A DNA stretch of 64,000 bases. Source: a virus. Location: the IMG/VR virus record IMGVR_UViG_3300030107_004520, positions 4,092 through 68,091 of that record. The stretch is one strand, 5' to 3'. Of the stretch, positions 3,952 to 63,491 are shown in pieces. Each line of letters opens with the position of its first letter. Within the stretch, counting starts at the first letter, position 1. A program made the position numbers and the translations under genes. The notes under the pieces are model-generated. The model ran no database searches. It had not been told where the DNA came from and worked only from the letters and a program-made list of their open reading frames with translations.

Positions 3952-4149
3952 ATGGAAGATAATCCAATTTACGAATCGTATAAACGATTAGAGCAAATCA
4001 TAGTAAACTCAACAATTGATGCCGATAAGTTTGTTAACGGTAATAATTCCGCAGGAACGCGGGTTAGAAAAGCAATGCAGGAAGTTAAAAAGATTGCTCA
4101 GGAAATAAGGTTAGAAGTTCAAGAACAAAAGAGCTCCGTACCTGTTTAA
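3952..4149 (+). CDS. Histone H1-like (Hc1-family) protein
   Basis: DADKF..GNNSAGTRVRKAMQEVKK.AQEIR motif. Confidence 0.75.
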   Translation: MEDNPIYESYKRLEQIIVNSTIDADKFVNGNNSAGTRVRKAMQEVKKIAQEIRLEVQEQKSSVPV

Positions 4150-18800: not shown

Positions 18801-21800
18801 ACCCTTATATGTTTTAGCGTCTTTAGAATTTACTTTAGATTCTCTAACAACATGCTTAACGGCTTCAGCTGCAAATGCAGAATTAATTTGGCTTTGTAAA
18901 CCATCTACAGTCATATTTTGTAAAGCCTCATTTACTGGAACATTGTTTTCCTTAGCTTTTCTAGCATCTTCAGCTTGACGTCTCTTTAAGTCCTTACCTA
19001 TTTCTGATTTCGTTCTCCTGTATATATCGCTAAACTTAGGATTAATCTTTCTTATTGTAGCTACTTGTGTGTCATTTACGCTTAACGATTTCATTAGATT
19101 TTTAACACCTATATCTGGTTTTTGAACACCAGATAAATCCGCATTATCTAAAATCTGTGTAGCTGCATCTGTTTCAGCTGCAATTTGAGCGGTTATTACT
19201 TCACCAGTTTCTGTAACTCTTTCTATAGGTGTTGTTTTAGGTTCTACCCCGTATTTAACCATTACATCACCTTTAGCGCGATATAAAATAGATTCTGTAA
19301 ATTTACCGCTACCACCAGTTAACCAACCGAACAAACTACCATTAGCCATTGATGGGTCAAAGTTTTTCTCCAATCTATTCTGCAACTCAACTTTTACATC
19401 ACTAACAAACTGAGGCATAGCTTCAGATGGAACACCTTTAGCTGTCACACCCGCTCTAATAAGTCCGTCTAAATGTTTACCATCTAGAGCCGTGTAAGCA
19501 TTCCAAAACGTTTCAGAACTTCTCCACTCAGCTTTACTATTAAACTTTTTACTACCATCTTCGTTTTGTGTAAACGTGTCAAATGTATCTTTTAAATCAG
19601 GATTATTCTCTACAGCTTGATCAACATTTTTAGAGAATGCCATTCTATCAGCTCGGTCAGCATCTTTCTTTTGTAAAGCAGCTTTAGCATCATCAATTAA
19701 TTTTCCTTTAGCGCCACTAACTATCATTCTAGTTAGTGCTTTATTTTGTACGTTGTTCTTTATAGAATGATGATAATCTTTTATAAAGTTTTTAACATCT
19801 TCTTTTGTATCGAATTTAATATCTCTACCTAGGTAATTTTGGGAGAATCGTCTAAATATATCTTTAACTTTAGTAATCGCGTTGTCATTAAATTCTATAT
19901 CATTATCCATCATCATTTCAGAACTTACAGCAAAAGCTTCCTCACCTTGCTGCTCAGCTCTATAACCTTGAACCCTCGCGTTCCATGTGTCTTGATCTTT
20001 AATAGTAACATCATCACTTTCTAAAATTTCCATGAGCGGTCCCGCTAAAGCTAGAGCAGCATTACCATCTTGTTTTAGTGTATTATAAAATGTAGCGTGT
20101 ACAAATTCATGAGCACCTGTATGAAACATACCATCTTCTAAAGAAGTTTCCTTATTAACAAACATGTCATAACTAGTTATCTCACCCGCTTCATTCATAA
20201 CAGGTACCATAACCCCATATCTAGAAGCTTGTCCAGCTATCATATTTGGTATCTCTTGTATTACTCCATCTTGCAATTGATCTAAATACGATTGCGCTTG
20301 AGCTTTTTCTTCTGTTGTAGCGTTTGGATCGGCTAACACCTCTTGCATTCCAACGGCAAGACCTTCTCTATATGTCTGTTCCATAAGATTATCATTAGTG
20401 TTAGCTAAGAACGTTTCAAAATCCTTTGTGTTACCTTCTTGTACATTTATTGACGGTCCACCAGCTTTTCTTACCTCATCAGCTCTATCTCTGATGCTTT
20501 CCATTGTTTGAGCGTACTTCTCTTTTGCTAACTCTACAGAGTGTTTATCTAGAATTTCTTGCTTTTTAGTTAAATTCCTGTTATAAATATCTTCTATCTT
20601 ACTAACCTCAGCTGCTTTTTGCTGATCTGTTAAACCTGTATCGTTATATATTTCTTGAGCCGCCTGCTGTAATTGTCTATTATCAGATTCTATATCTAAT
20701 AAACTTCTTTTTTCAGAATTACTTAAAAGATCTACCCTTTTTATATCGTTTGTTACTAGTTCTGTATTTTGTTGTATTATTTGAGCTAACTCATCTGATA
20801 ATCTATCTTCAACTTCTTTAGATAAGTTTTGATCAGTCATCATGTTCTGAATCTCCTGTATCCTAGCAAAATTAGCGTCCATAGTAGTAGACGTTTCTTG
20901 AGATTTAAATGGAGACATAAGCTGTTTAAACACTGGCATGCTTTTCATAGAGGTACTTATTAAAACACCACTAACAAAAGCTTCTTCTAAATTATCATAA
21001 AGACTAACTGTTTTATCACCACTATAGTAATCTGCCATATTCTCAGCCATTGATGCTAGCATTTCAGAACCACCTTCTTGAAATATATCCACACCACCCG
21101 CCAAAAGAGCTTGTTTGTTAAATACGTTTGTGCGAAGATATTTTGCTAATCCCTGTCTTCCACCAACAGACTTAAGTGCGCCCTTCATTGTTTTCATTTG
21201 ACCTAACGTAACTTTTTCAGACAAAGCCTCAGCTAACCCAACACCACTAGAATATAAAAACATTTCTGCAAAAGATATATCTTTACCGTATAAACCTTTA
21301 GTTTGTTCAAAAAGCTCTTTTTGCTCTTGATAATCAGCAAATTTAGAACCAGCAGAACTAGCGCCCATAACATACAGTGAAGCACCACCAGTTGCGTACA
21401 TTAAGGCTAAGTTAGGTATTTGACCACCTAACATTTGACCAGCCCATTCTGTAAAATCAGAAAAGCTATCTATACTATCATAAGCTATAGGTTGCTCTAC
21501 TAATTCCGCCATGTTTTCTTGCCAACCATCAATAGATTTGTGCATTTTCTGCCTCCAACCTGGTTCTCCTTCTGGTCCTGAACCCATATCATGATACATT
21601 GCAAGTGGAGAAAGTAAGGTAGTTGTTCCGGTTAAAAATGCTTTTAATGTAGGATCTTCTATATTAGCTGAGTCCATTATCCATTTGGATCCTCTATCTA
21701 CAGCCTCACTAATCATAGCTACAGAATACTCCAAACCTTGCAATAAATCAACTAAACCATTTGCTGTAGCAAGCGCAATTCCGGTTCCATCTTGATAATT

Positions 21801-26787: not shown

Positions 26788-29700
26788 TTAAGAGTTATTT
26801 ATAAAATTATCTATATATATGTGAGCAGCTGTAGCTGTCTCGCTATTACCAAGTCCGCCTACGTGTAATAATCCTTGAACCTTAGTGTTAGATCCACTCA
26901 TGACTGCTGATATATCTATAACCTTTATACCACTATGATTTGAATAGAAGCTTAGAGATTCATTATCAGCTATAGTGTTTGTTTTACTCAATACTAGAGT
27001 TGTAGCATTAGTAACACTGCTAACAGTAGTATCGCTAGCAACACCAGTTCCAGTAACAGTCATACCAGCAACAGCACCATCTGTATCATCTAAAACAACA
27101 GTTGCACTCTCAGTAACAACACCATTAGTTTGAAGTAGTCTATTATCAAAACCACCAACATCTGAAGCAGTTGGTTGTCTACCAACACCGCTAGATATAC
27201 TTAACGTTCTACCTTCAGTAGGTGTTACTGTAAAATCGAACGCTATAATAGCCGATGTGTTTCTTTCAAATGTAAGTGTTGTTCCATTAGCAACACTACA
27301 AGCTGTAGATATTGTAACTGTTCTTTTTCTTACACTACTAACAGTAACTCCATATGTTATGCCAGTACCTAACACATACATTCCAGGTTGGATTTTTGGG
27401 TTTTCTTTAGTTAACGTTATTGTCGTACCAGAGCTACCACCGTTACCACCTGTTTCAACAAAATTAACTCTCCTAAGACCACCAAACGTTTTCTCGCCAT
27501 ATTCTATAGGAGCTTTTATCGTTACCGCTGAAGGCATTGCACCAAAATTGCTAGTATGATTGTGTGTTTTTGGTTGTAATGTTACAGTATTAATACCATA
27601 CTGCGTTATACTAGCATCTTCAAAGTTAGTTGGCACCCCACTCGCTAGTGTAACTCCACTTCCTGCAGATAAAACTATATCATATCTTACTTTAGCTGTC
27701 GTTGTACCAGGTATAAGTATATGGTGAGTTGTGAGACCACTACTTCCAACAGTTGTTGTTAAATTTTGAGAATTTCCAGCTGAAGTTATATTCGCTAAAG
27801 TCTCAAACTCATTCTCTGTAAAATCATAGTACTTAGCAATAGTATTTTTTACTGGATCGCTATGCTGCGTTATTCTTATAGTATATTCACTACCACTAGC
27901 GCCTCTAACAGTAACAGGTACTTCTTGCGCTATATGTGATATTTCTGCTGGATAACTAACTCTAGTTATTTTGTTTGTAAACGTCTCGTTTTGTCTAAGT
28001 ACAAATTGGAATTGAGCTATATGGTTTAATTCACATAAACTTGGTGGATCTGGACTTAACCCATTTGTCTGTCCTGGTGTATAATATATCTTGTAAACAA
28101 GCTTTGTTGTACCAGCCGTTGAAGTTGTGGGTGTTATTGTATAATTATATTGGGAAGAGTAATCGACACCTCCATTCGTTAAATTATTAAAAGATAATCC
28201 CCAACCTTCATATTTATAACCACTACTAGCTGTAAATGATATTTCAGCAATTTTAGTAGAAACATTGTCGGTTACTGTTCCTGAATGTAAGTTTTTAGTT
28301 GTACCACTAGAAACACCATTGTCTACTACAGAGTTACCTAAACCAGTTGGAGCACTTGTTATAGATACCGTATGACCAGTTGAATAATAAGGATAATAGG
28401 TTCTTAAACAAGCATCTCTTCTAGGTATAATAGGAGCACTCTCCTCATCTATATCTATATAATAAGAAGTATTCGAAGTTGGACATGTAAACGAACCAAC
28501 GGCTACTCTAGCCCTAACTGTATTTGCTGGATCACCAGCTATACCTAAATCAGTAAACGTTACGCCGGTAATAGGAGAATCTACGTTACCACCGTTCCAT
28601 ACGCCACTACCACTACTAGTTTCTGAAGCTCCACCAATTTGAAAATCAGCAGCTGTTAAAACATATCCAGACCAAATACCATTAATAATAGGTGTTATTA
28701 CTAAGTCAACATTTTGACCACTAACAGTAGCACCTACAGTTTGTGTTTGAGTTACGTCTGCAACTGTCCATTTTAATCCTTCTGCAGAAACCACAGAAGA
28801 ACTATCCCAAGCGCCACCACTTCCATCAATACCAACATAACTAGAACTTGTGTTATTAGCAAATGTTAATGTTACAGCGGTTGTATCTGGATCAGTACCA
28901 CTACCACCGCCAACAAAAGAAAACGAGGCGTTACCTAATCCTTGAACAGTAAATTCTCTTTCATCTAAATTACTTAACTCTGTTGTTTCTCCAGAAGTAA
29001 CACCAAACCATTTACCTTCTTTTTCTTTAAACTCTATAACTCTACCTGTTTGTTTGTCTGTTATCATTTTACCAGCAGGTATATACCAACCAGTTTTAGC
29101 TGATAAATTAAAATATTCATTGTGTGCTGCGGCTGTAGAAGATATAGAGTTACCAGCAGCATCTGCTATAGATGTTGTAGATGGATTATAAATTCTAGCT
29201 TGCGTACCTTCATAATTAACAGTGTTAAAACTTTTAACAGCTTCCGGTGTATCGTTAAATAATATTGTTATATCCGACTCGTAAGCCGCACCATAAAAAC
29301 TATTTCTATTTACAGTTGAATCATGGTGTTTCCATAACTGTCCTTGGTAAAATGTATAATAATCGTTATTTAAACTAAGACCATTTTCTGGAGTAAATGA
29401 TTTAAAACTAGACCAACCTTTTGCTCTTTCACTGTAACTAACAGTAGTGTACGTAGCTTGCTTTTGTCCATTTGAATATTTTTTACCAAAAGTTAAGTTA
29501 TACTCATGTTTCTTTTCATCGTAAGTTCCTAACGCGCTCCATACGTAACTTTTTAGTTCATCTGCAAAATAATCTTTCATACCAAGATCTGATATTGATC
29601 TTACACCTTCTCCAGATAAAGCTAACACTTGACCTCTAATTATATCTGCAAAATAAATTTGTTGAGGTGTTGCTACAAAAGATTCTGGATTCTTGGATAT

Positions 29701-32700
29701 ACCCCAATCACCAGAGTAAGCAGACGCTGATCCCAATACTTTATTCGATGTACTAACATTTGATGAGCCGTCAGCATTATATAAAGCATCTCTATTCGTT
29801 AGTATTTTTATCACCTTATCCTCACAAAAAGCTAATATTTGTGTTGGTCTTGTGTATAGTTTTTGTATACTACCGTATATAGGATTTAAATCTTTTGTTA
29901 TAGCTTCTGCTGCTATAAATTGATTTGTTTCGTTTACACCATTAATAGAATTATATATACCAGAATATATTAAACCATGTTCTCTTCTCTCTTCTTTTAT
30001 TGGCTCAGCTAATACGGTAGAAGCTTTAACACCATTATCTACTTGTTTAGCGTTATAATCATCTCTTATTCTATCTGACTCTACACCATTACCAAAAGTC
30101 CAGCAGTTACTCCAATCTAATATGTGATATTGTCTATATAATTTTTGATCTTCACTTACTGTTGTTGGTCCACCGTGTAGTTTTAACGTGGTACCAGTTG
30201 CAGAAACAGCACCATTAGCTTTTGCTCCTAAAGAATAATGTACGCCAAATTGTTCTCTTTTATTAAAATACACGTCTGCACCATCTGCTATAGAAGCACC
30301 TGTAACTAATGCTGGTGAAAACGTAAGAGTTTGATCACTCCAAGAATCAACGGTGTGTTTGGTACCTGAAATACTAAAATTAGAACCTAAAGGTAGCAAT
30401 TCTTCGTTTGTAGCTGAATTTAACTCTAAAGGTATTAATCCGCTAGCTTGATAATAAATATCCATATCAACGCTTTCTTTTGGCTCTGTCTCCCAAATAG
30501 CTGGATCTTCTGAAAAATTATCTCTACCACCATTGTCTGTAAATTTTGATAAAATTTCTATTACATCAGTGCTACTAGTATCGTGTTTTAAAGGTGCGGT
30601 ACTATCTGGCGCACCATTTATAGTACCTGTTACGGGGTTGTAGAAGTTAGGCCCTTTACTACCAATAGGTGGATCTACCTCTATTGTCCATTTTTGTCTC
30701 ATACACGCTCCTTCATATAGTAACCTATTATAGCGCCACCCCTCGTCTTTATAATTTCTTATACCAAAATGTCCAGTTAAACGGCTTATGGCTAAAAAAT
30801 GACCTCCTGAACCAAAAGGATGTGTTGTGTAATTACTATATGTAGGATAATTATATTCACTAACCGTATAAACTGTCTCATCTGGATCGTTTCTAAATCT
30901 GAATTTTGTACCTTCTTGAGTAAGTCTTTCTATAAACGTAGCGGCTTTTACAAATATACCGTCTTCTAAACCAGCTTGATTATTTGCACAATCTTGAAGT
31001 GTGTGGTCAAAAGGCCTATCGCTCCAATTACCACCATCATAACCTTTACCCATACCTGTCCAAGATATATCTATTTTTCTACCACCGTCCCATATTCCTC
31101 TAGAAAGAGGACCTGCACCCGAAATAGCATTACCAAAAAGACCGGCATGCCCAAATCTATCTGGAGCACCTGGCCCTTCATTTTGAGCATCTACATTTGT
31201 ACCACCAAAAATATTATGGGTTCCAGTACCTTGATTTTTATCTCCTGGAATCATATCCGTGTGACCAGTCCATTGGTACGCACTACAAGCATCAATAAAG
31301 AATTGCCGTTTTCCACCCAGTTTTTCCCAAAACTGTCTAGCGTCTGTAGATCCGCTACTTAACCAACTATCGTTATTTAATGCTTCACAACTATCATCAG
31401 CCATATCAGAATTTTCTACACCAAAACGACTACCACTAGTTCCACCACCCCACTCATAAGCTGATCCAGTAAAATGACTATATTTAGTTGGGTGATCGCT
31501 ACCATCTCTGTCTGTCTTCTGCTTCGCGTTCATTCCTATAACACCTCCCTGTACGTGCTTATAAGCATTGTTATTTAAATATCTTAACTTCCAAGTATGT
31601 GAAACAAAATAATCCTCTATACCACCACCACCAGTTTCTACAACACGTTTGTTTAATACACTATCTCTATATATTTTTACAAAAAATCTACCATCAAATT
31701 CAGGTTTGTTTTCAACTTCATCTTCAATTAATTCTAATTGTAAACCGGTGATAGCTGTAGCGTAGGTACCACCCGTTGATGTAAATTCCATCTCTTCTCC
31801 AAATTTACCTTTTATTTTTATTTTGTATGGCGTTGAGCTGTCACCACTAATTTTTACAACTTCATAAATCTCAGATCTATCATTAGGTCCCCATATCCTC
31901 ATACTCAATCTATCAGGTGTTTGTATAGGTAAATTGCTACCAAAAGTGCTCTCAAACGTGGTAGCTTCTACTTCTATTTCAACCTCATCCGGCATTGGAA
32001 AACCACTTACACCATTACCTATTTGTGTGTTACTTGTATTTGGCATTAAACCCAAACTTTTCTTTTCTGTTTTTATAAAGTCTGGAGCTTCATCTTCAAT
32101 AGCTAATATCTTATATCTTGCTCTCTCTTTCACCGCTGAACCTGAACCATGCTCTTTCTTAAGTATTAAAAATGTTTCTTCATCTAATTTGTTTCTTTCA
32201 GAAGAAGGAAAGGATAACCATATATTACCGTCAGCAGCGTGGTACCATCTATCCATAGCTAGAGTATAATACTCTGTAGATGTTTCTTTTACATACCAAG
32301 AAAAATACTTAGCCCAGTCAGGAACATTTGTTCCTTGATCTAATCTTACATTTAACCTGTTTCTAGTTAACGCAGCTTCTTTTGGTATATCTATAGAAGC
32401 GTCTTTACTAGTCAACACTGGTGTTTCTCTACCATACCCATCACTATATACTACACCAACTTGGTAAGTTCTCATAGATTTAAGAGATGCAACCTGTGTT
32501 ACTTCGCCTAATTCAGAGTTACTACCTAAATTCTTTATTTCCTGTGAATGCAATAATACTTTTATTTTCGGGTCTTCTAGTGCTGTATAGTTTTGTAAGT
32601 AGTTACCGTATATTAATCTATTAGCGCTAATTTCTTGTGCTTTAGCTGTTCTAGGAACATTATCCCATGGTCTTAATAATTGATTAGAAGGAACTACAGC

Positions 32701-34461
32701 GTGTACTAATTCTGATTTTATTTCATATTCACCTCTAGCGTAAGCATTTGTATAATTTAAGTCAGGCCAAATTGGGTGACCATCTGTAGGTTTTATAGTT
32801 TTAACAGTATATACTGTTGGATCATTTGTTTCTTTATACAACAGATCTATCTCTACAACATCTCTAGGTAAAGCATCTAATTCAGGGTGATACCCTTTTA
32901 ACTTTAAATTCCTTAATTGGTTTCTCATACCTAGATTATAACCCTTTTTAGGTTTGTATTCGTAATCACCTGGTATAAAAGCTATTTGGGACCAAGGTGC
33001 GAAAGTAGAATATTCACCATCTTGGTATTTATATCTATAAGAAAATCTAACAAATTTAAACTCAAAAAGAGGTTCTCCATCTTCTAATCTAACAAACCAA
33101 TCCTCATCAGAGTCTGGTAAATCAGAATCAATAGATAGTACTCTAACATCAAAAGATGTTGAAAATAAGTTATCTGGATCTGTAACTGGCGAAGACTCAA
33201 CAACTGTTCGCACTTCATAATTATCAAAAGTGTCTGAGCCTTGTGCATCTGAATTGTTTGTCCATAACAATATATCACCTTGTCTAAAATCAATAGCTGT
33301 ATCAAACGTTATACCGGTTATAAGATCACCGGATTGATAAGCAACGTTATTGCTATAAAATCTACCATTGAATGAAGTGTTTTTTGGGTTAGAAAGCCCG
33401 TCCGCAACCCGTATACGTGGGTCCTTTGAAATAGACATGTCTAGTTCTAATGGCTGCGTAGGTGATTTTTTAATTACGGTTATATGTTCTTCTTCAACGT
33501 ACTGTGCTCTATCTTCTGTTCTATTAGTAACCACTTGTCTAAGACCATTACTGTCTACATCTGCCACTAATCTAGTATGGAAATAATTTGTATCACCATA
33601 AAATAGTTGCGTTGGATCTGGTGTTCCAGCGGCATAACCAGCCACACCACCACCAGCTAAATACGCAACACCACCAGTTCCTTCTATAGATCTTTTTATA
33701 TTTATTTTTTTCGGCTCTGTATAACCGTCTGTCCAGAATAATAAATCATCAATAACATTTATCGCTGTAATATGTGAAGATGCTTTAGCTTTAAAATTTA
33801 AAACCCTATCCGCTAAAAACTCTACTGTATCATTATTAGATACTGTTAGGTTTTCAGATGTGTATATTCTCCAAGTATCAGGCGAGGTGGACGTGTCAAC
33901 CCTAATATCAGTTACAGTTATATTATCTGCTCTGGTGTAAGTAGTACCACCTAAAGTACCTGTTACATACATACCGATTCTTATACCTGTTTTATTTATT
34001 GTGGAACTACCATTTTGCAGAACAGCAAAATAGGGGCTGCTAGATAGTGCGCCCTGTACGGTTGTTTTAACATAATATATGTCTACAAAAACATATTTAA
34101 GTATTTCTTGTATAGCGTTATATTCTAATATATAATCTCTACGTATATCGAGCCCTTGACCCGTAGTGTTATTTATACCAGCAGATACAAAGTAATATAT
34201 TTTATCAGTATCTGGAACAGCAATTGAACCTACGCAAGTAGATGTTGTCGGAACATCATAATTAGCATTACTTGAAAAACTCGTATCCATCGTGTTTTTT
34301 TGTACATTACCGTATAATGTTTGTAACGAACCAACGTTAGAATCATCCGAGGTAGATATCTGTACATTTTTTGCATCTCTATACTGCCCAGCTGGAACAA
34401 GTCTTTCGTCCATGTCCTTGTTCATTTTTGCCTGGGAGAAATTACGTTTAAACTCTGGCAT
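26788..34461 (-). CDS. Large tail (tubular/stabilization, nozzle-like) protein with fibre-like C-terminal extension
   Basis: N-terminal KMNKDMDERLVP.GQYRDA.N; NGVESDRIRDDY and GISKNPESF motifs of Bacteroidota podovirus tail proteins; T/S/G-rich C-terminus. Confidence 0.7.
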   Translation of the reverse strand: MPEFKRNFSQAKMNKDMDERLVPAGQYRDAKNVQISTSDDSNVGSLQTLYGNVQKNTMDTSFSSNANYDVPTTSTCVGSIAVPDTDKIYYFVSAGINNTTGQGLDIRRDYILEYNAIQEILKYVFVDIYYVKTTVQGALSSSPYFAVLQNGSSTINKTGIRIGMYVTGTLGGTTYTRADNITVTDIRVDTSTSPDTWRIYTSENLTVSNNDTVEFLADRVLNFKAKASSHITAINVIDDLLFWTDGYTEPKKINIKRSIEGTGGVAYLAGGGVAGYAAGTPDPTQLFYGDTNYFHTRLVADVDSNGLRQVVTNRTEDRAQYVEEEHITVIKKSPTQPLELDMSISKDPRIRVADGLSNPKNTSFNGRFYSNNVAYQSGDLITGITFDTAIDFRQGDILLWTNNSDAQGSDTFDNYEVRTVVESSPVTDPDNLFSTSFDVRVLSIDSDLPDSDEDWFVRLEDGEPLFEFKFVRFSYRYKYQDGEYSTFAPWSQIAFIPGDYEYKPKKGYNLGMRNQLRNLKLKGYHPELDALPRDVVEIDLLYKETNDPTVYTVKTIKPTDGHPIWPDLNYTNAYARGEYEIKSELVHAVVPSNQLLRPWDNVPRTAKAQEISANRLIYGNYLQNYTALEDPKIKVLLHSQEIKNLGSNSELGEVTQVASLKSMRTYQVGVVYSDGYGRETPVLTSKDASIDIPKEAALTRNRLNVRLDQGTNVPDWAKYFSWYVKETSTEYYTLAMDRWYHAADGNIWLSFPSSERNKLDEETFLILKKEHGSGSAVKERARYKILAIEDEAPDFIKTEKKSLGLMPNTSNTQIGNGVSGFPMPDEVEIEVEATTFESTFGSNLPIQTPDRLSMRIWGPNDRSEIYEVVKISGDSSTPYKIKIKGKFGEEMEFTSTGGTYATAITGLQLELIEDEVENKPEFDGRFFVKIYRDSVLNKRVVETGGGGIEDYFVSHTWKLRYLNNNAYKHVQGGVIGMNAKQKTDRDGSDHPTKYSHFTGSAYEWGGGTSGSRFGVENSDMADDSCEALNNDSWLSSGSTDARQFWEKLGGKRQFFIDACSAYQWTGHTDMIPGDKNQGTGTHNIFGGTNVDAQNEGPGAPDRFGHAGLFGNAISGAGPLSRGIWDGGRKIDISWTGMGKGYDGGNWSDRPFDHTLQDCANNQAGLEDGIFVKAATFIERLTQEGTKFRFRNDPDETVYTVSEYNYPTYSNYTTHPFGSGGHFLAISRLTGHFGIRNYKDEGWRYNRLLYEGACMRQKWTIEVDPPIGSKGPNFYNPVTGTINGAPDSTAPLKHDTSSTDVIEILSKFTDNGGRDNFSEDPAIWETEPKESVDMDIYYQASGLIPLELNSATNEELLPLGSNFSISGTKHTVDSWSDQTLTFSPALVTGASIADGADVYFNKREQFGVHYSLGAKANGAVSATGTTLKLHGGPTTVSEDQKLYRQYHILDWSNCWTFGNGVESDRIRDDYNAKQVDNGVKASTVLAEPIKEERREHGLIYSGIYNSINGVNETNQFIAAEAITKDLNPIYGSIQKLYTRPTQILAFCEDKVIKILTNRDALYNADGSSNVSTSNKVLGSASAYSGDWGISKNPESFVATPQQIYFADIIRGQVLALSGEGVRSISDLGMKDYFADELKSYVWSALGTYDEKKHEYNLTFGKKYSNGQKQATYTTVSYSERAKGWSSFKSFTPENGLSLNNDYYTFYQGQLWKHHDSTVNRNSFYGAAYESDITILFNDTPEAVKSFNTVNYEGTQARIYNPSTTSIADAAGNSISSTAAAHNEYFNLSAKTGWYIPAGKMITDKQTGRVIEFKEKEGKWFGVTSGETTELSNLDEREFTVQGLGNASFSFVGGGSGTDPDTTAVTLTFANNTSSSYVGIDGSGGAWDSSSVVSAEGLKWTVADVTQTQTVGATVSGQNVDLVITPIINGIWSGYVLTAADFQIGGASETSSGSGVWNGGNVDSPITGVTFTDLGIAGDPANTVRARVAVGSFTCPTSNTSYYIDIDEESAPIIPRRDACLRTYYPYYSTGHTVSITSAPTGLGNSVVDNGVSSGTTKNLHSGTVTDNVSTKIAEISFTASSGYKYEGWGLSFNNLTNGGVDYSSQYNYTITPTTSTAGTTKLVYKIYYTPGQTNGLSPDPPSLCELNHIAQFQFVLRQNETFTNKITRVSYPAEISHIAQEVPVTVRGASGSEYTIRITQHSDPVKNTIAKYYDFTENEFETLANITSAGNSQNLTTTVGSSGLTTHHILIPGTTTAKVRYDIVLSAGSGVTLASGVPTNFEDASITQYGINTVTLQPKTHNHTSNFGAMPSAVTIKAPIEYGEKTFGGLRRVNFVETGGNGGSSGTTITLTKENPKIQPGMYVLGTGITYGVTVSSVRKRTVTISTACSVANGTTLTFERNTSAIIAFDFTVTPTEGRTLSISSGVGRQPTASDVGGFDNRLLQTNGVVTESATVVLDDTDGAVAGMTVTGTGVASDTTVSSVTNATTLVLSKTNTIADNESLSFYSNHSGIKVIDISAVMSGSNTKVQGLLHVGGLGNSETATAAHIYIDNFINNS

Positions 34462-53724: not shown

Positions 53725-53900
53725 CCTATATCCTATAACCTATATCCTATCCTAGATATTAGGAACTAATATCCTTAGGTATAGAAAAACATATTATAAA
53801 TATAGGGGTACTGTGTTGCCCCCTCCCTCTACCCCCCTCCCCTCCCCACAGAAACTCAATCCCTTAACCCAGCCCCGTATGACCCTTTTCACCCCTTTCA
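53725..53900. repeat. Low-complexity divergence zone: CCTATA-like repeats and a C-tract (G-quadruplex-capable on the minus strand)
   Basis: cctatatcctataacctatatcctatcctag and CCCCCTCCCTCTACCCCCCTCCCCTCCCC (53819-53847). Confidence 0.7.
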
Positions 53901-53951
53901 ATCCTTTTTCAACACTTTCTTATTACGAATCATTTCAGATAATATATATGT

Positions 53952-54047
53952 ATGAAAACAATAATAGAAATATATAAAATCGGAATTTGTCTCCTCTTCT
54001 CACCAATTATAATTACATTCTTAATGGTGAATGAATTGATAGACTAG
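53952..54047 (+). CDS. 31-aa membrane peptide
   Basis: MKTIIEIYKIGICLLFSPIIITFLMVNELID*, directly after promoter copy 1. Confidence 0.45.
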   Translation: MKTIIEIYKIGICLLFSPIIITFLMVNELID

Positions 54048-54056
54048 TCGTCAGTG

Positions 54057-54139
54057 GGTTGTATAAGGTCTACCTCTACTATGTAGTTGACAACCGTAGA
54101 CGAGATGTAGTGTGACCAGATTGGTATGCATCTCCAACC
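54057..54139 (+). ncRNA. Structured RNA, copy 1 (three-way junction)
   Basis: GGTTG/CAACC, GTCTAC/GTAGAC, CTAC/GTAG, GAGATGTA/TGCATCTC, ACCA/TGGT; covaries with copy 2. Confidence 0.75.
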
Positions 54140-54368
54140 TCAATATGCTGACTAAATACGAACTATAATAGATAATATAAATAACTAATAATAATAATTA
54201 AATAATTAAATATGAAAAATAAATTAACTGGAAGATATATCCAACATTATTATGACGCAGCAGTAGCTGGCATAATAACAATAGATGAATTCTTCGAATT
54301 GTCAATGATTCTACCTACTAGAAATCTATATAAAAGAAATTCGCAGATTCTGAATATATTATAAAACA

Positions 54369-54413
54369 GTGACAATAGCCTGTTACTAATACCTCTTAAT
54401 AGGCTTATGTCAC
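54369..54413. promoter_or_regulatory. Imperfect inverted repeat GTGACAATAGCCT...AGGCTTATGTCAC (operator/origin-like)
   Basis: Related copy at 61289-61332 and half-site at 53706-53724. Confidence 0.65.
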
Positions 54414-54745
54414 AGTGTGGTCTGACTTTGAAATAGCGTTGAAAGATTATACTCCAACCTACGTCATACTTTCTGTGTCATAATGTCATGTCAAGATGTC
54501 ACATTATTAATCACAGGGTAAATACGACTCAATTTAGATAATATAAATGTAAACAAACTAAAATGAATAATAAATATAAATTGAATATGACAAATTGTCA
54601 GTGACAAAGAGTCATGGTGGTATACCAGTAGTATAAAAATATCAAATAAATAAATTACATACTTTTATACGAACTAAATACGAGATAAAATAGATAATAG
54701 AATAAAGATAAATAAATAAATTAATAATTAAATAAAAAAAAAATT

Positions 54746-54991
54746 ATGTCAGTAGAAAAATTAGAAAAAACTTTAAAATCAAAAAGATTTGTAGTAAGAA
54801 AATCATTAATCGGTAAAAATGTAATAATTACATTCACTAATAAAAAAGGTGATGAAATAACATATAATCACGATAAAGTGTATGAACTTATGAAAGAAAA
54901 ACTTGAAACTTTACCATGTTGGGAAAAGTATAAAAGTTACACTGCAACTAATAATATACCATTAGTATGTCGTGGAGTGGAGTTAGTTTAA
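54746..54991 (+). CDS. Early hypothetical protein
   Basis: Downstream of promoter copy 4; followed by a hairpin. Confidence 0.7.
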   Translation: MSVEKLEKTLKSKRFVVRKSLIGKNVIITFTNKKGDEITYNHDKVYELMKEKLETLPCWEKYKSYTATNNIPLVCRGVELV

Positions 54992-55004
54992 TAACTCTAC
55001 TTTT
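54975..55004 (+). terminator. Terminator-like hairpin
   Basis: GAGTGGAGTTA-GTTTAA-TAACTCTACTTTT. Confidence 0.55.
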
Positions 55005-55007
55005 CGT

Positions 55008-55100
55008 CTCGATATTATAAGATTCACCTTCACCGAGGTAGGTGACGACAACCGTGAGTACACTGTAGTTGGACCAAAATGGTATATAGTGTGTGTCGAG
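55008..55100 (+). ncRNA. Structured RNA, copy 2 (three-way junction)
   Basis: CTCGATAT/GTGTCGAG, ATTCAC/GTGAGT, TCACC/GGTGA, ACACTGTA/TATAGTGT, ACCA/TGGT. Confidence 0.75.
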
Positions 55101-55113
55101 TATAAATAAACTA

Positions 55114-55157
55114 AGTAGTCTTGGAGTATAAGTGAGTTCGATTCTCACACTACTACA
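55114..55157 (+). ncRNA. tRNA-like minihelix (acceptor stem plus T arm, no anticodon arm)
   Basis: AGTAGT-CTTGGAGTATAA-GTGAG-TTCGATT-CTCAC-ACTACT-ACA. Confidence 0.55.
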
Positions 55158-55443
55158 ATTAAATTAATATAAATTAAATAAATAAATTAGTATGAGTAAG
55201 AATTGTGAAAATGCGAGAAATATAGTGTTAGGAGTTTGGATAACTCTAGTAAGTATTGTAGTACTATTTTCAAGCTACTAATGGAGTTATACGAAGCGAT
55301 ACCAATGCCAGATGGTGACCCAATAGAACACTTGAAAATAACAGTGATTCTAATAGCTATTTGGTATTTGGTGACGTTAGTGAATGATAAAATTACAAGA
55401 TAAATACGAATGTTATTAGATAATATAATAAAGATATAAAAAT

Positions 55444-55722
55444 ATGAGTAGAAAAATAATACTAGAGTCATACGAGAATAACACTGTTTATGGTGTAAGT
55501 GTATTCGATAGTTATGGAGTTGAGCATCACTTAGGTGATATTAATGCGAGTGATATAGGAATTTTAAAAATTCATGATAGAAGTATTGCTTCTCATGCTC
55601 ACCAAATATGGTCAGATGAAGTAGAACCTGAAGAGAATTTACTTGGAAATGCTATTAGAGCGTGTAATGAACTTGACAAAGAAAATGGTTTATTAAGAGG
55701 AAATAGTGACGGATTAGATTAA
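55444..55722 (+). CDS. Early hypothetical protein
   Basis: Follows promoter copy 5. Confidence 0.65.
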   Translation: MSRKIILESYENNTVYGVSVFDSYGVEHHLGDINASDIGILKIHDRSIASHAHQIWSDEVEPEENLLGNAIRACNELDKENGLLRGNSDGLD

Positions 55723-56050
55723 AAATAGAAATTATGAGAATAGAATGTAAATTATGTAAAAGAAATTTAACTGGTCAAGCAATAGCTTTATTAGAAGGTA
55801 AAATAAAAGAAATTATTTGCAAATGTCAAGTTAAAAATAAAATTAAAAAATAGAAATTATGAAATATAAAGACGAATTACAAGAAAAATTAGCAAAAGAA
55901 TATGGATTAGATATTTTAATTACTAATCATGCTTATGATAATAAACCATTTAATGAAAATACTAAAGAGGTATATTTTAAGCAATTTGATAAATTCTTAG
56001 CTAAATTAAAAGAAAAAAACGGAATAACTAATTATTAAAAAATAGAAATT

Positions 56051-56167
56051 ATGAGAAAATTATTAGCAATTATTGCAATCGCTACATTATTAGCGAGTTG
56101 CGCAAGTACGCCACATCACGCATGTGGAATCACTGAACTTAACAAGCAATACTCAAGGTGTAAGTAG
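56051..56167 (+). CDS. 38-aa lipoprotein
   Basis: MRKLLAIIAIATLLAS|CASTPHHACGITELNKQYSRCK*; lipobox LASC. Confidence 0.65.
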   Translation: MRKLLAIIAIATLLASCASTPHHACGITELNKQYSRCK

Positions 56168-56224
56168 TGTTAGGTTGGATGATATTAATAGCGGTAGTAT
56201 TAACTATGATTAAATGGATTAGAG

Positions 56225-56374
56225 ATGAAGACGAGACTTACGAATAAACAAAAGAGTAGAATCAGGCGGGAATTAGACTTAGAAATGGGTGTAAAACCGC
56301 CTAAATCCGCTATATTTAAGAATAAAAAGAAATATAATAGAAAGAAAAAACATAAAAATGAGCAAGAAAAATAA
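56225..56374 (+). CDS. 49-aa very basic protein with ArfA-like C-terminus
   Basis: ...SAIFKNKKKYNRKKKHK... Confidence 0.5.
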   Translation: MKTRLTNKQKSRIRRELDLEMGVKPPKSAIFKNKKKYNRKKKHKNEQEK

Positions 56375-56576
56375 ATATATAACAGTATTAGATTTTGAAG
56401 TAGGAAGAGTATTTCAATATAAAGTGGAACCTTTATGGGAAAATATGAGACCTAGAGCAGATTATGGAGAATATTTAACTATTAAAGGTCATAATTTAGC
56501 TAATTGTGAGTGGATGGTACATGATACTGCTCAAATAATTACTAAAGATGACTATAGAGAAGTAATATATAATTAA
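56358..56576 (+). CDS. Early hypothetical protein
   Basis: ITVLDF...GH...NCEWM. Confidence 0.6.
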   Translation: MSKKNKYITVLDFEVGRVFQYKVEPLWENMRPRADYGEYLTIKGHNLANCEWMVHDTAQIITKDDYREVIYN

Positions 56577-56617
56577 ATATCACAAACTAAATACGAATAC
56601 TATTAGATAATAATAAT

Positions 56618-56827
56618 ATGATATGTAAATGTAAAAATATAATACCTGAGCAACGAGTTAATCTTGGCTACAGTGTGTGTATTAGTTGTTCTACTGTTGA
56701 ACAGTATGGCTGTGCACCACTAATTAATCATAAAACTGGTAATTCTATCCAGATTATGTCAAGCAGTGACGCTGCACGTATAGCTAAGTTGACTCAACGC
56801 CGAGGTTATGGTACAATGTTAAAATAA
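56618..56827 (+). CDS. DksA/TraR-like C4 zinc-finger protein
   Basis: CKC..IPEQR..LG...CISCS; follows promoter copy 6. Confidence 0.55.
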   Translation: MICKCKNIIPEQRVNLGYSVCISCSTVEQYGCAPLINHKTGNSIQIMSSSDAARIAKLTQRRGYGTMLK

Positions 56828-57081
56828 AGAAATATGAATAGAATAAAATTTTTAAAAGAAGATAAAATAAAGTTGAACGGTATACTTTATAAACCATATA
56901 AAATATGTGAATTACCACCAAGTTTTGGTAAAGATATATTAGAATGGTTCAATTATAAAGGTTATACATATATAGCAGAATAATATGGAATTAATAGCAA
57001 TAATAATGGTAGTAGGATATGCTTATGCAATTTACTTAATGTTAATGTATATCTACAACAATAATAAAAGAAGATGGTAAT

Positions 57082-57618
57082 ATGAATAGAAGAGAATACA
57101 ATAGTGATCCAAGGTATGCTAAAGTACTAGAGCAGATGGATTTACTAGGAATAATGGATATTAGTACAAAAAGACAAGCAGAAAATGGTACGATAGTATG
57201 GAAACTACCTATCAAAAACGAGTGGCCAGGAAATCAAGAGAATGCAACTTGTATTGAAGTAGCTAGTTTTAAAACTGGTTATGTACGTAATCAAAATAGT
57301 GCGTATAGTAATTACCAATTAAACAAACGGGTTGATGGTGAACCAAAATACTATAAACTATCTAATGGTGATTATAGAAAATATACACTCAAAGAATGTG
57401 TGTTAATACCAATAGAAATAGATAGATTAGAATACTTAATAAGCTATTGTATTAAAAATTATTACATAAAACGAGCTAATAAAGTGGTAAACGGTGAGTA
57501 TATACCTAAATGGAAAAATGAAGCAGATAAATCTGAGCAATTTGCAAAAGGATTTGGTCATGCCAACGAAACACAAGAAGTAGAAGTAATAATTAACGGA
57601 TTTAGATATAAAATATAA
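57082..57618 (+). CDS. Early hypothetical protein
   Basis: 178-aa ORF. Confidence 0.7.
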   Translation: MNRREYNSDPRYAKVLEQMDLLGIMDISTKRQAENGTIVWKLPIKNEWPGNQENATCIEVASFKTGYVRNQNSAYSNYQLNKRVDGEPKYYKLSNGDYRKYTLKECVLIPIEIDRLEYLISYCIKNYYIKRANKVVNGEYIPKWKNEADKSEQFAKGFGHANETQEVEVIINGFRYKI

Positions 57619-58003
57619 TGAAAGAATTAAATAAAGAAGATAGATTTCTAATAATAGAAGCGATAAACGAGTTAGTAGAAATAATTTCCGAGTGGGAAGA
57701 TAATGAAGAATGGATTAAAGAATTAAACGATTTATTAAAAAGATTATGAGATTATTTAAGAAAAGATTAAGTCAAAATGACAAATTATTAAAAAATATAG
57801 AAAAATATGAGCAAAAAGAGAAAATTAAACAGCAAGAATCCAAAATATATGGACAAAAGCCAGTTAAAAGAGCAAAAAGTTAAAGAAAAAAGATTAATAT
57901 CTAACGTAGATGGAGTAAAAATATACGCTACCTTCTACGAAGATGACACAAAATAAATACGAATGTATTTAGATAATATAAATGTAATAAAAAATGTAAT
58001 AAA

Positions 58004-58357
58004 ATGAGTGATTCAAAAGAACTGTTAGAGGCTACAGTAAAAGGTCTCCAAGAAAAAGTAGATAGTCTTACTAAAGATTTAGCTGCTAAAAAAAATGAGT
58101 TAGAAGATATAAATAAACCTAAAATGTCTAAATTTATATACGAAGAAATAGAAGATAGTGTTTATAATAACATGATGGATGCTTTAGATCGTCTAAGTGA
58201 AAGTGACTATGACATTGAACTAGAACTAAGCGGTCTTGAACTTAGTGTATATCAGTTAGATTTTCATGATACTACTAGTATATCAGAGTATATTATGGAT
58301 GCTATTAATGATAAATTCAACGTTGTAGAAGACGAAACTACTACTGACAATAGCTAG
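58004..58357 (+). CDS. Acidic coiled-coil early protein
   Basis: Follows promoter copy 7. Confidence 0.65.
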   Translation: MSDSKELLEATVKGLQEKVDSLTKDLAAKKNELEDINKPKMSKFIYEEIEDSVYNNMMDALDRLSESDYDIELELSGLELSVYQLDFHDTTSISEYIMDAINDKFNVVEDETTTDNS

Positions 58358-58447
58358 TTAAATAAGTGTATAAATGTAGATTATATACAAAAAATGAGTT
58401 ATTCTGAAGAATAATGGAAAAATAGGTATAATAATCTCTAAATACAC

Positions 58448-58580
58448 GCGAGGTGAGGGTGGTAACGTAATATGCTGTGATCTCTATGAGACAGCCAGTA
58501 ATTACAAACGGCAGGATAAAGCGAGTTCCGAAACTCGGCTCACCGAAACCCGGAGAAGAACCACACCTGTCCCACCTCGT
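58448..58580 (+). ncRNA. GC-rich multi-stem structured RNA immediately 5' of tRNA-Asp
   Basis: GCGAGGTG/CACCTCGT, AGGGTGGT/ACCAC(A)CCT, GTAAT/ATTAC, GCTG/CAGC, TCTC/GAGA, GAGTT/AACTC. Confidence 0.6.
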
Positions 58581-58584
58581 TTAT

Positions 58585-58658
58585 GGTCTGGTAGTTCAGT
58601 TGGTTAGAATCCCCGCCTGTCACGCGGGAGGTCGCGAGTTCGAGTCTCGTCCAGACCG
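58585..58658 (+). tRNA. tRNA-Asp (GTC)
   Basis: Acceptor GGTCTGG/CCAGACC with discriminator G, D arm, anticodon arm CCCGC-CTGTCAC-GCGGG, T loop TTCGAGT; CCA not encoded. Confidence 0.95.
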
Positions 58659-58673
58659 CTAAAATTAAATAAT

Positions 58674-58928
58674 ATGACAGCAACACAAATAACAAATTAC
58701 TTAAAAAATGAATATGGAGAGTGTAGACACGACGCTTACGCTCTAGCAGAAGCTATAAATCAAACTCGTGAAGATATGGACTACGAAGATGAGTGGGATT
58801 TATTTCATTTACTAGTAGAAAACAAACCAATTAATAGCCTAATGACACATAGTTATGGGTTTCACACAGCTAATGGTAGGGGAATTATAGAGAGAATAAA
58901 GAGCTACTATTACGAAAACATTAAATAA
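58674..58928 (+). CDS. Hypothetical protein
   Basis: ORF with an A-rich start context. Confidence 0.6.
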   Translation: MTATQITNYLKNEYGECRHDAYALAEAINQTREDMDYEDEWDLFHLLVENKPINSLMTHSYGFHTANGRGIIERIKSYYYENIK

Positions 58929-58929
58929 T

Positions 58930-59145
58930 ATGATAAAAGAAATAAATATGAGAAAATTACCGAAATACAAAGAAAATCTACGTATAATAAACGGTAAAGA
59001 TGTATACTCTTATTCAACTAGAGTTGCACAGATAAAAGATAATGAACTACATGTATATGGTTGGTGGAGTCCAACTACGTCTAAACATATAAATTATGTA
59101 GCGGATTATTATAACTTAAATAGAGTAAATAAATATGATGCATAA
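58930..59145 (+). CDS. Conserved small phage protein
   Basis: YSYSTRVA...WSPTTSKHIN motif. Confidence 0.6.
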   Translation: MIKEINMRKLPKYKENLRIINGKDVYSYSTRVAQIKDNELHVYGWWSPTTSKHINYVADYYNLNRVNKYDA

Positions 59146-59185
59146 ATATACAAACTAAATACGAATAAAGAAAGATAATATAAAT

Positions 59186-59443
59186 ATGACAAAAAAACAA
59201 CAATTACCAGATTGGTTTGAGGGTGATATCTACGATAAAGGAGGTATTGCTACAAATCAATTTTCTGGACAATCAATAAAATTAAATAGATATGAACTGA
59301 GTATGTATGATTTTTTACTCGGTGCACAAATTGTATTAAGTTACGGTGGTACACTGAAAGATAAAACTATAAAAGAAGTTCAAAAAGGAACCGATTGGTT
59401 TTTAAAGAATAACCCTGAGGCTTACATGATTTTATTAGACTAA
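59186..59443 (+). CDS. Hypothetical protein
   Basis: Follows promoter copy 8; ends NPEAYMILLD. Confidence 0.65.
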   Translation: MTKKQQLPDWFEGDIYDKGGIATNQFSGQSIKLNRYELSMYDFLLGAQIVLSYGGTLKDKTIKEVQKGTDWFLKNNPEAYMILLD

Positions 59444-59530
59444 TGGTTGTTGTTTTAATAGTAATCTGGGTGTGTATGTTTGTATATATGTTTATAGAAT
59501 GTAGTATACCCACAAAATTTAAAGAATAAT

Positions 59531-62302: not shown

Positions 62303-62733
62303 GTAAAAAAATAATGTTTGTAGATATGGATGGCGTAATTGCCAACTTTAAAAAAGCAGCAGATGAAGGCGGGTGGAAACACAGGCCTGACAAATATGTA
62401 GATTACAGAAACTTAGAACTAATGCCAGGTGCTAAAGAAGCTCTTATAAAGTTAAACGAAGACTTTGATATTTACATTGCTTCAACACCACCATGGGATA
62501 GACCAGATATGTGGTCTGCAAAACGTGAATGGCTAGCGGAACATTTCCCTTGGCTTAAACGTAAACTAATACTAACACACAGAAAAGATTTATTAATCGG
62601 TGATATTTTAATTGATGATAGTAGATGGAGAGGACAACCAGACTTCCAAGGAGCATGGATTTGGTTTGGTACAGCACAAAGATGCTTGGATTGGCCATCA
62701 ACATTAAAGTTGATCTATAAAAACCATATGTAA
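62299..62733 (+). CDS. 5'(3')-deoxyribonucleotidase (HAD, NT5C family)
   Basis: VDMDGVIANF...KREWL..HF...KDLLIGDILIDD. Confidence 0.85.
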   Translation: MSKKIMFVDMDGVIANFKKAADEGGWKHRPDKYVDYRNLELMPGAKEALIKLNEDFDIYIASTPPWDRPDMWSAKREWLAEHFPWLKRKLILTHRKDLLIGDILIDDSRWRGQPDFQGAWIWFGTAQRCLDWPSTLKLIYKNHM

Positions 62734-63491
62734 TGAAAAAATATAATGTACAAAATTATGTTAGATGGAAAAAAGAAGTAGAAAAACTAACAAAGAAACT
62801 AGAAGGAAAAGAATGGCACGAATGCACAAGAGATGAATTGATAGGTAAGTTCTTGCCACTAGTAGAGAATTTAGCAAGAAAATTCTCAACAACACAACAA
62901 GCTAGTGGAGTAATGAGTATAAACGATTTGATACAAGAAGGTTCTAAGGGATTAACTAGAGCTGTTGATAGACTAGACAAATCAACTTTAGAAAAATCTG
63001 ATGATCAAGAAAAAACCCTCAAATCATTTTTATCTAAAAGAATTAAGGGAGCCATTAGAAGAGGAATAAATATAAATAGAGGAAGTATAAGAATACCAGA
63101 ACATAAACTTAACGAAATACAGAGAACATTTGGTAAAGATAAGAAAGCTGTGGCTCTATTTTTTAACTCTATATTTTTAAGTATTGATGAAGGTCCTAGA
63201 AATGAGGATAATATGGTTTATCAAATACCAGACGAAACAGAACCTTACAATATGACGTTATTAAATATATACTTAAATAGTTTATTAAAACTACATCTTA
63301 ACGATAAAGAGTATCAAGTACTTAGACTAAGCTATGGGTTGGATTGTGACAAACATTCAGCTACAGATATAGCTAAAAAAATAGGGATTGAAGGTACTAG
63401 TTCTTATGTAAGAGTTTCACAATTAAAAAAACAAGCGGTAGATAAACTTATAGAGAACGTAGACCACTCGCAAGTGCTTGATTTCCTGTAG
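62733..63491 (+). CDS. Phage-encoded sigma70-family RNA polymerase sigma factor
   Basis: Region 2 (LVENLARKF...DLIQEG..GL..AVDR...IRIP) and region 4 (EYQVLRLSYGL...IAKKIG...RVSQLKKQA). Confidence 0.85.
   Translation: MKKYNVQNYVRWKKEVEKLTKKLEGKEWHECTRDELIGKFLPLVENLARKFSTTQQASGVMSINDLIQEGSKGLTRAVDRLDKSTLEKSDDQEKTLKSFLSKRIKGAIRRGININRGSIRIPEHKLNEIQRTFGKDKKAVALFFNSIFLSIDEGPRNEDNMVYQIPDETEPYNMTLLNIYLNSLLKLHLNDKEYQVLRLSYGLDCDKHSATDIAKKIGIEGTSSYVRVSQLKKQAVDKLIENVDHSQVLDFL

Follow-up and report, generated by a model that had tools for sequence, protein, structure and literature searches.

What kind of feature does a virus encode in a compact stretch that stops a few nucleotides (nt) short of a tRNA gene? 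We address this question for the element at positions 58448-58580 (+ strand) of a 64,000-nt stretch of IMG/VR virus record IMGVR_UViG_3300030107_004520 (positions 4,092 to 68,091). This whole stretch, referred to here as the window, makes up the right-hand 64 kb of that record, which spans 68 kb and is rated complete. An initial sequence-only reading had described the element as a structured noncoding RNA (ncRNA) distinct from other elements in the window, closed by two long-range pairings around two compound hairpins. On comparative evidence, and in agreement with that description, the element belongs to an undescribed family of noncoding structured phage RNAs: it is present as a single copy in the window (103.6 bits with a covariance model (CM) from our first alignment), its closing helix covaries among relatives, and no reading frame across it is conserved.

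A GC-rich island upstream of tRNA-Asp

The GC content is 0.48-0.58 across 58450-58649 vs 0.23-0.31 in the flanks, and this profile agrees with the GC-rich island of about 133 nt in AT-rich DNA noted previously. The closing helix of the element, P1, stops at 58580, 4 nt on the 5′ side of a tRNA-Asp(GTC) gene called by ARAGORN at 58585-58659 (65.7 bits with the Rfam tRNA model RF00005). P1 (GCGAGGT/ACCTCGT) is present in the minimum free energy fold of the window sequence, which has a predicted energy of -43.9 kcal/mol (z = -1.99), with six of 200 shuffles equal or better. Given this modest single-sequence signal, the case for structure rests on relatives.

Relatives of the element

A 15-mer from the 5′ end of the element returned 84 matches, two of which are true homologues; comparison with these revealed three conserved blocks in colinear order. 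The virome, metagenome, and species-genome searches used a pattern that combines two of these blocks; it retrieved 19 virome loci, all of which match the CM, and at least 120 marine metagenome loci, some of them in records named TARA. From the matches listed for viromes and marine metagenomes, 117 distinct full-length members were extracted (given L numbers where individual members are discussed). The CM was built from the first 19 sequences, and 102 members, 101 of them distinct, were aligned (alignment A2); further variants came from a 16-mer search that placed no constraint on the 5′ and 3′ blocks. Sequence comparison thereby establishes the element as a family member. Two relatives, L206 and L302, harbor two tandem copies.

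Conserved architecture and the closing helix

All members share one order of segments from 5′ to 3′. The first half consists of the P1 5′ strand, GAGG, GUGGU, a linker ending in AAC, GGCAGG, and AUAAAGC, and the second half of an A-rich stretch with the variable hairpin P4, GA, ACCAC, a purine, CCUGCC, a C followed by a variable base, and the P1 3′ strand. The near-invariant segments inside P1 are GGGUGGU, AACGGCAGGAUAAAGC, and GAACCAC-R-CCUGCCC. This near-invariant core comprises ≈45 nt, and the minimal element is only ≈55 nt long because both insertion sites can be empty. The corresponding features of the window are as follows:

58448-58454 (+): P1 5′ strand, GCGAGGU, pairs with 58574-58580
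58455-58458 (+): junction J1/2, GAGG; the two G's beside P2 are near invariant, and their variants are uncompensated in CCU
58459-58463 (+): P2 5′ strand, GUGGU; invariant, complementary to 58560-58564
58464-58506 (+): insertion site 1, hairpin 1 (GUAAU..AUUAC); variable and optional
58507-58509 (+): linker end, AAC; A 101/102, A 102/102, and C 94/101 in A2
58510-58515 (+): P3 5′ strand, GGCAGG, pairs with 58566-58571
58516-58522 (+): junction AUAAAGC; 102/102 in A2, where the final C, alone left free by the search pattern, is also 102/102
58523-58557 (+): P4, insertion site 2, a variable hairpin; hairpin 2 of the sequence-only reading, re-drawn
58558-58559 (+): GA before the P2 3′ strand; G 101/101 and A 101/101, both pattern-free; U for A in L369 and L379
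58560-58564 (+): P2 3′ strand, ACCAC; invariant also in the search that left ACCAC free
58565 (+): purine between P2 and P3; A in the window, G in L333, L336, L339, L350, and L351
58566-58571 (+): P3 3′ strand, CCUGUC (CCUGCC in most relatives), pairs with 58510-58515
58572-58573 (+): near-invariant C (101/102) and a variable base (G 55, C 28, A 7)
58574-58580 (+): P1 3′ strand, ACCUCGU, pairs with 58448-58454

P1 is established by covariation. Compensatory changes are found at five of its seven pairs, and 95.6% of cells are paired across the 101 distinct sequences; 49 of the 51 double-change cells in the whole structure fall within it. The covariation score of P1 was reached by none of 500 column shuffles, and every slid control scored far lower. 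The commonest P1 5′ strand among members is ACGAGGU, and the bases immediately outside the helix are not conserved. The outer pairing of the sequence-only reading is therefore kept in relatives, with covariation, as a helix of seven pairs; the eighth pair drawn there, G58455-C58573, is not conserved, G opposite G being the commonest combination.

The P1 and P3 cells together contain 22 G.U vs three A.C combinations, an excess that speaks for RNA of the + strand. An open reading frame (ORF), 58477-58662, overlaps the element and continues through tRNA-Asp, and coding selection on it had been named as one observation that would speak against an RNA. Just 29 of the 117 homologues possess a stop-free frame across the core, and the lengths of the inserts fill all three classes modulo 3. 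The frame is thus not conserved, and the noncoding view of the element stands.

A predicted pseudoknot in the core

The second long-range pairing had been drawn as P2 with an AGG/CCU extension, which competes with P3 for CCU. The alignment speaks against this extension: it has 14 unpaired cells and zero compensation, and L253, L322, L383, and L231 alter or delete the G's of AGG while CCU remains, a comparison that carries the caveat that CCU is fixed by the search pattern. Four of the P3 pairs are likewise fixed by the pattern and carry no covariation information. The outermost P3 pair, pattern-free on both sides, is GC in 93 sequences, GU in five, and AU in two, and the second, pattern-free on the 3′ side, is GC in 98 and GU in three, with zero mismatches at either pair. 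At the two free 3′ positions, the aligned set contains C-to-U changes only, save for the deviant L231 (A at the last position). Two different sequence backgrounds show the A-U state of P3, one in L215 with L273 and the other in L230 with L270, and the P3 of the window itself contains a G.U pair. These data support P3 in part. Since AGG/CCU is uncompensated and the free pairs of P3 are without mismatch, the covariation, although limited, points to a pseudoknot in which P3 (GGCAGG/CCUGCC) crosses P2 (GUGGU/ACCAC), rather than a nested helix, as the most likely fold of the core. A possible extra P2 pair is U-A in minimal forms and A-U in L369 and L379.

Two insertion sites accept interchangeable hairpins

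The stretch from GGGTGG to GCAGG, which contains insertion site 1, measures 7-144 nt among the 117 members. No hairpin is found at this site in 36 of them (≤8 nt, with a linker of just 4-5 nt), and the remaining members harbor a hairpin or an entire second module of up to ≈140 nt. P4 ranges from nothing in L336, L350, and L389 to >100 nt in L340, L348, and L385. Where present, the inserts are generally more stable than their shuffles (68 of 78 members for insert 1; 107 of 113 for P4). Of the two compound hairpins proposed earlier for the window, hairpin 1 is predicted as drawn, whereas the GAGTT/AACTC pairing of hairpin 2 gives way to a better alternative fold, re-drawn as UUCCG/CGGAG around UCGG-CUCA-CCGA; as read by eye, relatives carry ACCGA/UCGGU vs UCCGA/UCGGA in this hairpin. 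Both hairpins occupy sites that are empty in some relatives. Marine metagenome contigs show insert swaps against the window, and the inserts are, by sequence, interchangeable modules of a modular architecture. On contigs from runs X4/X1, the 85-nt spacer before the element (58363-58449) is replaced by 8 nt, and the P4 tip (58538-58542) is exchanged for a different 37-nt module; modules are thus exchanged within present-day populations.

Distribution and host

The two-block pattern gave five chance-like matches, all without the 5′ block, in 185,579 bacterial and archaeal species genomes, and a CM search found the element in none of 151 Bacteroidota genomes. In GenBank phage records, blastn with a 301-nt query matched through the tRNA alone, a 14-kb query gave one unrelated partial match, and a minimal form gave two chance matches (E = 3). 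No strong CM match, and two weak ones (E 0.03-0.05), were obtained from 31 records picked by terminase similarity alone, most of which are fragments. Within the genomes searched (species genomes, Bacteroidota, and GenBank phages), the element is specific to phages by these sequence criteria. Another lead was the 13-mer GGCAGGATAAAGC. Of 401 Bacteroidota genomes, 88 contain it, a number above that for the reversed control, but the six places examined turned out to be unrelated coding-like DNA, and the lead was dropped.

The phage probably infects a marine bacterium of the Bacteroidota. Its terminase shares 44% identity with those of the Flavobacterium phages vB_FspP_elemo and also matches Cellulophaga, Tenacibaculum, and Maribacter phages; a 1001-aa protein of the window carries a C-terminal type IX secretion sorting domain, and a sigma-70-like factor is encoded at 62733-63491. 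These features, together with a crAss "muzzle" domain, point to such a host. The genome also encodes two giant ORFs that are unusual for a 68-kb podophage-like genome: one of 3710 aa at 12879-24011 (-), with an AAA_33/zeta-toxin-like (polynucleotide-kinase-like) domain at residues ≈2585-2735, and one of 2557 aa at 26788-34461 (-), whose product harbors the "muzzle" domain.

Genomic context

Between 53.9 and 59.9 kb, the + strand is organized as one short early-type unit after another. The motif TACGA-N9-AGATAAT is found here in nine copies, all on the + strand between 53924 and 59903, vs 0.25 expected by chance, and probably serves this group of phages as its early promoter. In its fuller form the motif reads AAATACGA..TAGATAATATAA, and each copy precedes a short ORF or a structured stretch. 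An attribution of this motif to a T7-like RNA polymerase was dropped, as the phage encodes the sigma-70-like factor instead. The features nearest the element are as follows:

57807-57956 (+): p45, a small basic ORF (49 aa as listed); tblastn 62% identity over 45 aa, E 6e-16
57958-57977 (+): nearest upstream copy of the promoter-like motif, a TACGA-N9-AGATAAT match
58423-58435 (+): TAGGTATAATAAT, like the downstream half of the promoter motif; read by eye, no full-motif match
58581-58584 (+): linker UUAU, A/U; putative tRNA 5′ leader and RNase P site

The motif at 57958-57977 probably drives the gene at 58004-58357, the element, the tRNA, and two further ORFs, and TAGGTATAATAAT is a possible weak promoter just upstream of the element. 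Among the sequencing runs listed for the stretch there was no RNA run; one possibly-RNA run has sequence only on the tRNA and on 58762-58912 and carries no weight either way.

A tRNA lies within 40 nt downstream of the element in nine of 110 distinct members with enough flank; it is tRNA-Asp every time and begins 3-5 nt past P1 in eight of the nine. The succession of structured RNA and tRNA pointed out previously thus recurs, though it neither defines the family nor is shared by it, most members having no adjacent tRNA. RNase P acts at the 5′ ends of tRNAs, and in the window this would leave the element with a 4-nt tail. A spacing of 3-5 nt gives the tRNA no room for a promoter of its own, so these tRNA genes must be transcribed through the element. 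In most members without a tRNA or T-arm-like motif downstream, what follows P1 is a U-run with the promoter-like motif, another ncRNA module, or neither of these. At least four U's follow P1 in 61 of 111 members, and 44 of 111 lack such a U4 run; the window has just UUU, and a terminator scan found no + strand terminator at the element. As a terminator hairpin, P1 would enclose a "loop" of 55-240 nt. tRNA-Asp stands directly behind four of these U-runs, which argues that P1 plus U-run is not an efficient terminator. The promoter-like motif, which comes after the element in many relatives, lies within 45 nt of it in 14 of 111 members.

Upstream, a same-strand p45 homologue is found within 400 nt in 57 of 101 members, and its stop codon lies ≤15 nt before P1 in 45 of 101. 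p45 proteins are conserved, lysine-rich, and ≈45 aa long, with a VYGVWYE-like C-terminal end and no Pfam family. In the window, p45 is parted from the element by the promoter motif and a 117-aa gene. An obligatory link between p45 and the RNA was discarded, as p45 occurs without the RNA in two relatives (G030 and G029).

The early regions of relatives hold further RNA modules, best illustrated by the array of L261 (p45, element, module B, tRNA-like module, tRNA-Asp, and promoter motif). The second conserved module, module B (GUGUGCGCGAGAYGUGUA ... AUCUUACUCGCAUGACAC), has no Rfam match. It is found downstream of the element in eight of 111 members (L086, L095, L218, L219, L233, L261, L275, and L299) and is nested in insertion site 1 of L087, L089, L092, L097, L100, L101, and others; the window, when searched for it, lacks module B. 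The tRNA-like module is represented in the window at 55065-55156 (+). It combines an acceptor-like stem and a D-like region containing GG with a long insert and a canonical T arm (GUGAGUUCGAUUCUCAC in the window; GAGAGGUUCGAUUCCUCUC in relatives such as L261, L219, L275, and L224). It has no ARAGORN call and just 18.9 bits with the Rfam tRNA-Sec model, and in relatives it shares arrays with the element, often right before tRNA-Asp. A T-arm-like motif occurs within 200 nt downstream of the element in 28 members, 27 of them not called by ARAGORN and one (L096) being its tRNA-Asp, and within 120 nt upstream in one of 109 members with at least 100 nt of upstream sequence. Finally, the region 53760-54700 (+) of the window, between the leftward structural and the rightward early genes, opens with a C-rich tract (≈53815-53900), and GC-richer, ORF-poor stretches between its promoter motifs (≈54040-54150, ≈54370-54520, and ≈54590-54640) may be further structured RNAs.

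A proposed role for the element and its alternatives

The explanation we favor, with about half of our confidence, is a small RNA that is processed and acts in trans, with an invariant pseudoknot core as the part that binds a conserved partner. P1 would close a near-invariant core that folds as a pseudoknot, with two sites accepting hairpins of 0 to >100 nt. The element would be made in early polycistronic transcripts of uncultured marine podophages with probable Bacteroidota hosts, a typical transcript consisting of a small ORF, the element, other ncRNA modules, and a tRNA-like module and/or tRNA-Asp. Cleavage within the A/U-rich linkers would release the element; in the window, its 3′ end would come from RNase P acting on tRNA-Asp, which lies 4 nt downstream. 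The freed RNA would then act in trans. Least certain is this mechanism, in which the core may serve as a specific binding surface for a host or phage protein or a small ligand, with P1 and the inserts as scaffold only.

Several observations weigh against this proposal. P2 never varies, and covariation therefore cannot judge its pairing; the search patterns fixed most core positions, such that invariance is independent evidence only for the columns left free. The pseudoknot would have an unusual, nonclassical geometry, with 1 nt between the P2 and P3 3′ strands and a linker of down to 4-5 nt, a judgment that is reasoned rather than computed. Within the searches made, the element is a patchy, accessory feature of a subset of these phages: the closest record by terminase, MW202828.1 (64% identity), has no CM match, and CM searches found no element in the complete relatives G024 and G030. 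The proximity of the p45 stop codon to P1 in 45 of 101 members and the U4 runs in 61 of 111 would equally suit an element that acts in cis at a 3′ end.

This last alternative, a cis-acting 3′-end module on the upstream early mRNA that blocks 3′-to-5′ exonucleases or aids termination via P1 and the U-run, is unlikely in our view. MALAT1, which has a 3′ end generated by RNase P and protected by structure, offers a parallel for the layout. The positions of the p45 stop codon and of the U-runs, the latter often followed by the promoter-like motif, fit such a module, as do the tRNA 3-5 nt downstream in eight members and the recurrence of promoter motif, small ORF, and structured stretch in the early region of the window. 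Yet protection or termination needs no ≈45 invariant nt, and four of the nine tRNA-Asp copies stand behind P1 and U4 without a promoter of their own, which speaks against efficient termination; the terminator scan was negative on the + strand at the element, and most promoters in the window follow genes that have no such element before them. More doubtful is the bolder suggestion that the ≈55-nt core is a new functional RNA fold with its own activity, be it a ribozyme cutting ORF-ncRNA-tRNA precursors, a bacterial-world counterpart of exoribonuclease-resistant RNAs, or a decoy to disable a conserved host enzyme, for example a nuclease or defense protein, and as such an accessory early gene of marine Bacteroidota phages.

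Taken more narrowly, as a new class of small self-cleaving ribozyme that cuts the ORF-ncRNA-tRNA precursor at either of its ends, as theta ribozymes do at the 3′ ends of phage tRNAs, the element would fit by its compact, predicted pseudoknot core, by invariant helices and junctions, by outer stems that can be lost, and by its place in multi-RNA arrays adjoining tRNAs; ribozymes abutting phage tRNAs are a precedent (PMC10879173). We nevertheless deem this improbable, because Rfam gives no match to a self-cleaving family for the window region or for minimal forms, with E values up to 10 allowed, the strand order is unlike the hepatitis delta virus (HDV) fold in that the P1 3′ strand lies at the very 3′ end, and the bases just outside P1 vary. 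Similarly improbable is a riboswitch-like aptamer, in which P1, stabilized by a ligand, and the U-run behind it would attenuate transcription into the early unit that follows. A covarying P1, invariant junctions with a pseudoknot, and variable peripheral hairpins do form an aptamer-like pattern, and the U-run directly follows P1 in the 61 members noted above, but 44 of 111 members lack U4, the element lies at the ends of transcription units or between ncRNAs rather than in 5′ leaders, the next unit mostly has its own promoter motif, and no Rfam riboswitch matches. Scarcely credible, and already largely refuted, is a reading with no RNA feature at all, which would make the locus a coding ORF (58477-58662) or a DNA-level feature such as mobile-element inverted repeats or a protein-binding site. 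The overlapping ORF, the resemblance of P1 to terminal inverted repeats, and the shuffling of modules among relatives might be taken for it; however, the ORF runs through the tRNA, the frame is stop-free in only 29 of 117 homologues with indels in all three classes modulo 3, G.U cells far outnumber A.C (22 vs three), and P1 changes in sequence while its pairing is kept.

Significance of the family

Phage ncRNAs beyond tRNAs are poorly known, and this element is widespread, with at least 120 loci in ocean viromes and metagenomes. Its core is identical letter for letter in >100 uncultured marine phage sequences and matches no described RNA family; it stays constant while flanking genes and P1 diverge, a pattern usual in RNAs that are catalytic, bind ligands, or dock onto machinery. 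The modular arrays of structured RNAs, tRNA-like modules, and tRNA-Asp in the early regions of these phages point to a possible RNA-based layer of host takeover or counter-defense in abundant marine Bacteroidota phages. Among the GenBank phage records searched, no cultured model phage yet carries the element; at ≈55 nt, the minimal form is short enough to be studied directly by biochemistry and by structure determination.

Comparison with known RNAs

The Rfam comparison suggested with the original description yields no family for the element. At the gathering thresholds of Rfam 15, the tRNA alone passes in the window; at E up to 10, nothing overlaps the element in a scan of 54500-59500, isolated minimal forms (111 and 121 nt) give chance-level matches of 10-15 bits or none, and 12 related loci give nothing relevant. 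Hammerhead, twister, twister-sister, pistol, hatchet, and hairpin ribozymes are absent from the Rfam matches of the region and the minimal forms, and likenesses to RNase P RNA, tmRNA, 5S rRNA, twister, and the hairpin ribozyme were set aside since the strand order differs or no Rfam match exists. A full-text literature search found no description of this motif.

The HDV-like fold is a nested double pseudoknot with the P1 3′ strand in the middle and the P2 3′ strand at the 3′ end. In the element, the strands run P1 5′, P2 5′, P3 5′, P2 3′, P3 3′, and P1 3′; P1 joins the first and last segments, and an HDV-like or theta fold was rejected on this ground. Theta ribozymes adjoin the 3′ ends of phage tRNAs with a suggested role in tRNA maturation (PMC10879173). 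The element resembles them as a small RNA with a predicted pseudoknot that adjoins a phage tRNA gene and differs in lying 5′ of the tRNA, in being mostly tRNA-free, and in having no HDV-like match in Rfam.

Among aptamers, the element is best compared with small H-type pseudoknots. The preQ1-II/III, SAM-II, fluoride, and guanidine-III riboswitches combine a compact pseudoknot core and near-invariant helices and junctions with an A-rich strand beside the helices and an optional embedded hairpin, features shared by the element with its predicted pseudoknot. It differs from these classes in having 1 nt between its 3′ strands and no Rfam match, and it is not found in a riboswitch context: rather than in a 5′ leader, it sits after ORFs and before ncRNAs, tRNAs, or promoter motifs.

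The tRNA-like modules with a canonical T arm in the arrays of the element recall the tRNA mimicry of Y RNAs such as YrlA (PMC4201824). The element itself differs from Y RNAs in lacking a T arm as well as a D arm; within 58448-58580, neither ARAGORN nor the Rfam models for tRNA and Y RNAs give a match, the T-arm motif is absent from the element, and no Ro/TROVE protein is found among the 53 window ORFs scanned with Pfam. A catalog of 8,495 csRNAs of 29-151 nt from IMG/VR intergenic regions, many of them tRNA-like or terminator-like (PMC10690425), resembles the element in source and in comprising unnamed structured RNAs. In the tables of this catalog, as distinct from its alignments, the motif strings are absent, as are the sample numbers for six of the contigs. 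The element may have an anonymous earlier listing there.

Finally, RNAC and RNAD of phage T4 are encoded within its cluster of tRNA genes and undergo maturation along with the tRNAs. These "species 1 and 2" are phage-encoded small stable RNAs of unknown function that are classed as late (PMC9697503). The element is likewise a phage small RNA without an assigned function; it differs in lying in the early-type region of a Bacteroidota podophage and, for the most part, after a tRNA-free ORF. In the window and eight other members, the tRNA-coupled layout of the RNAC/RNAD type fits.

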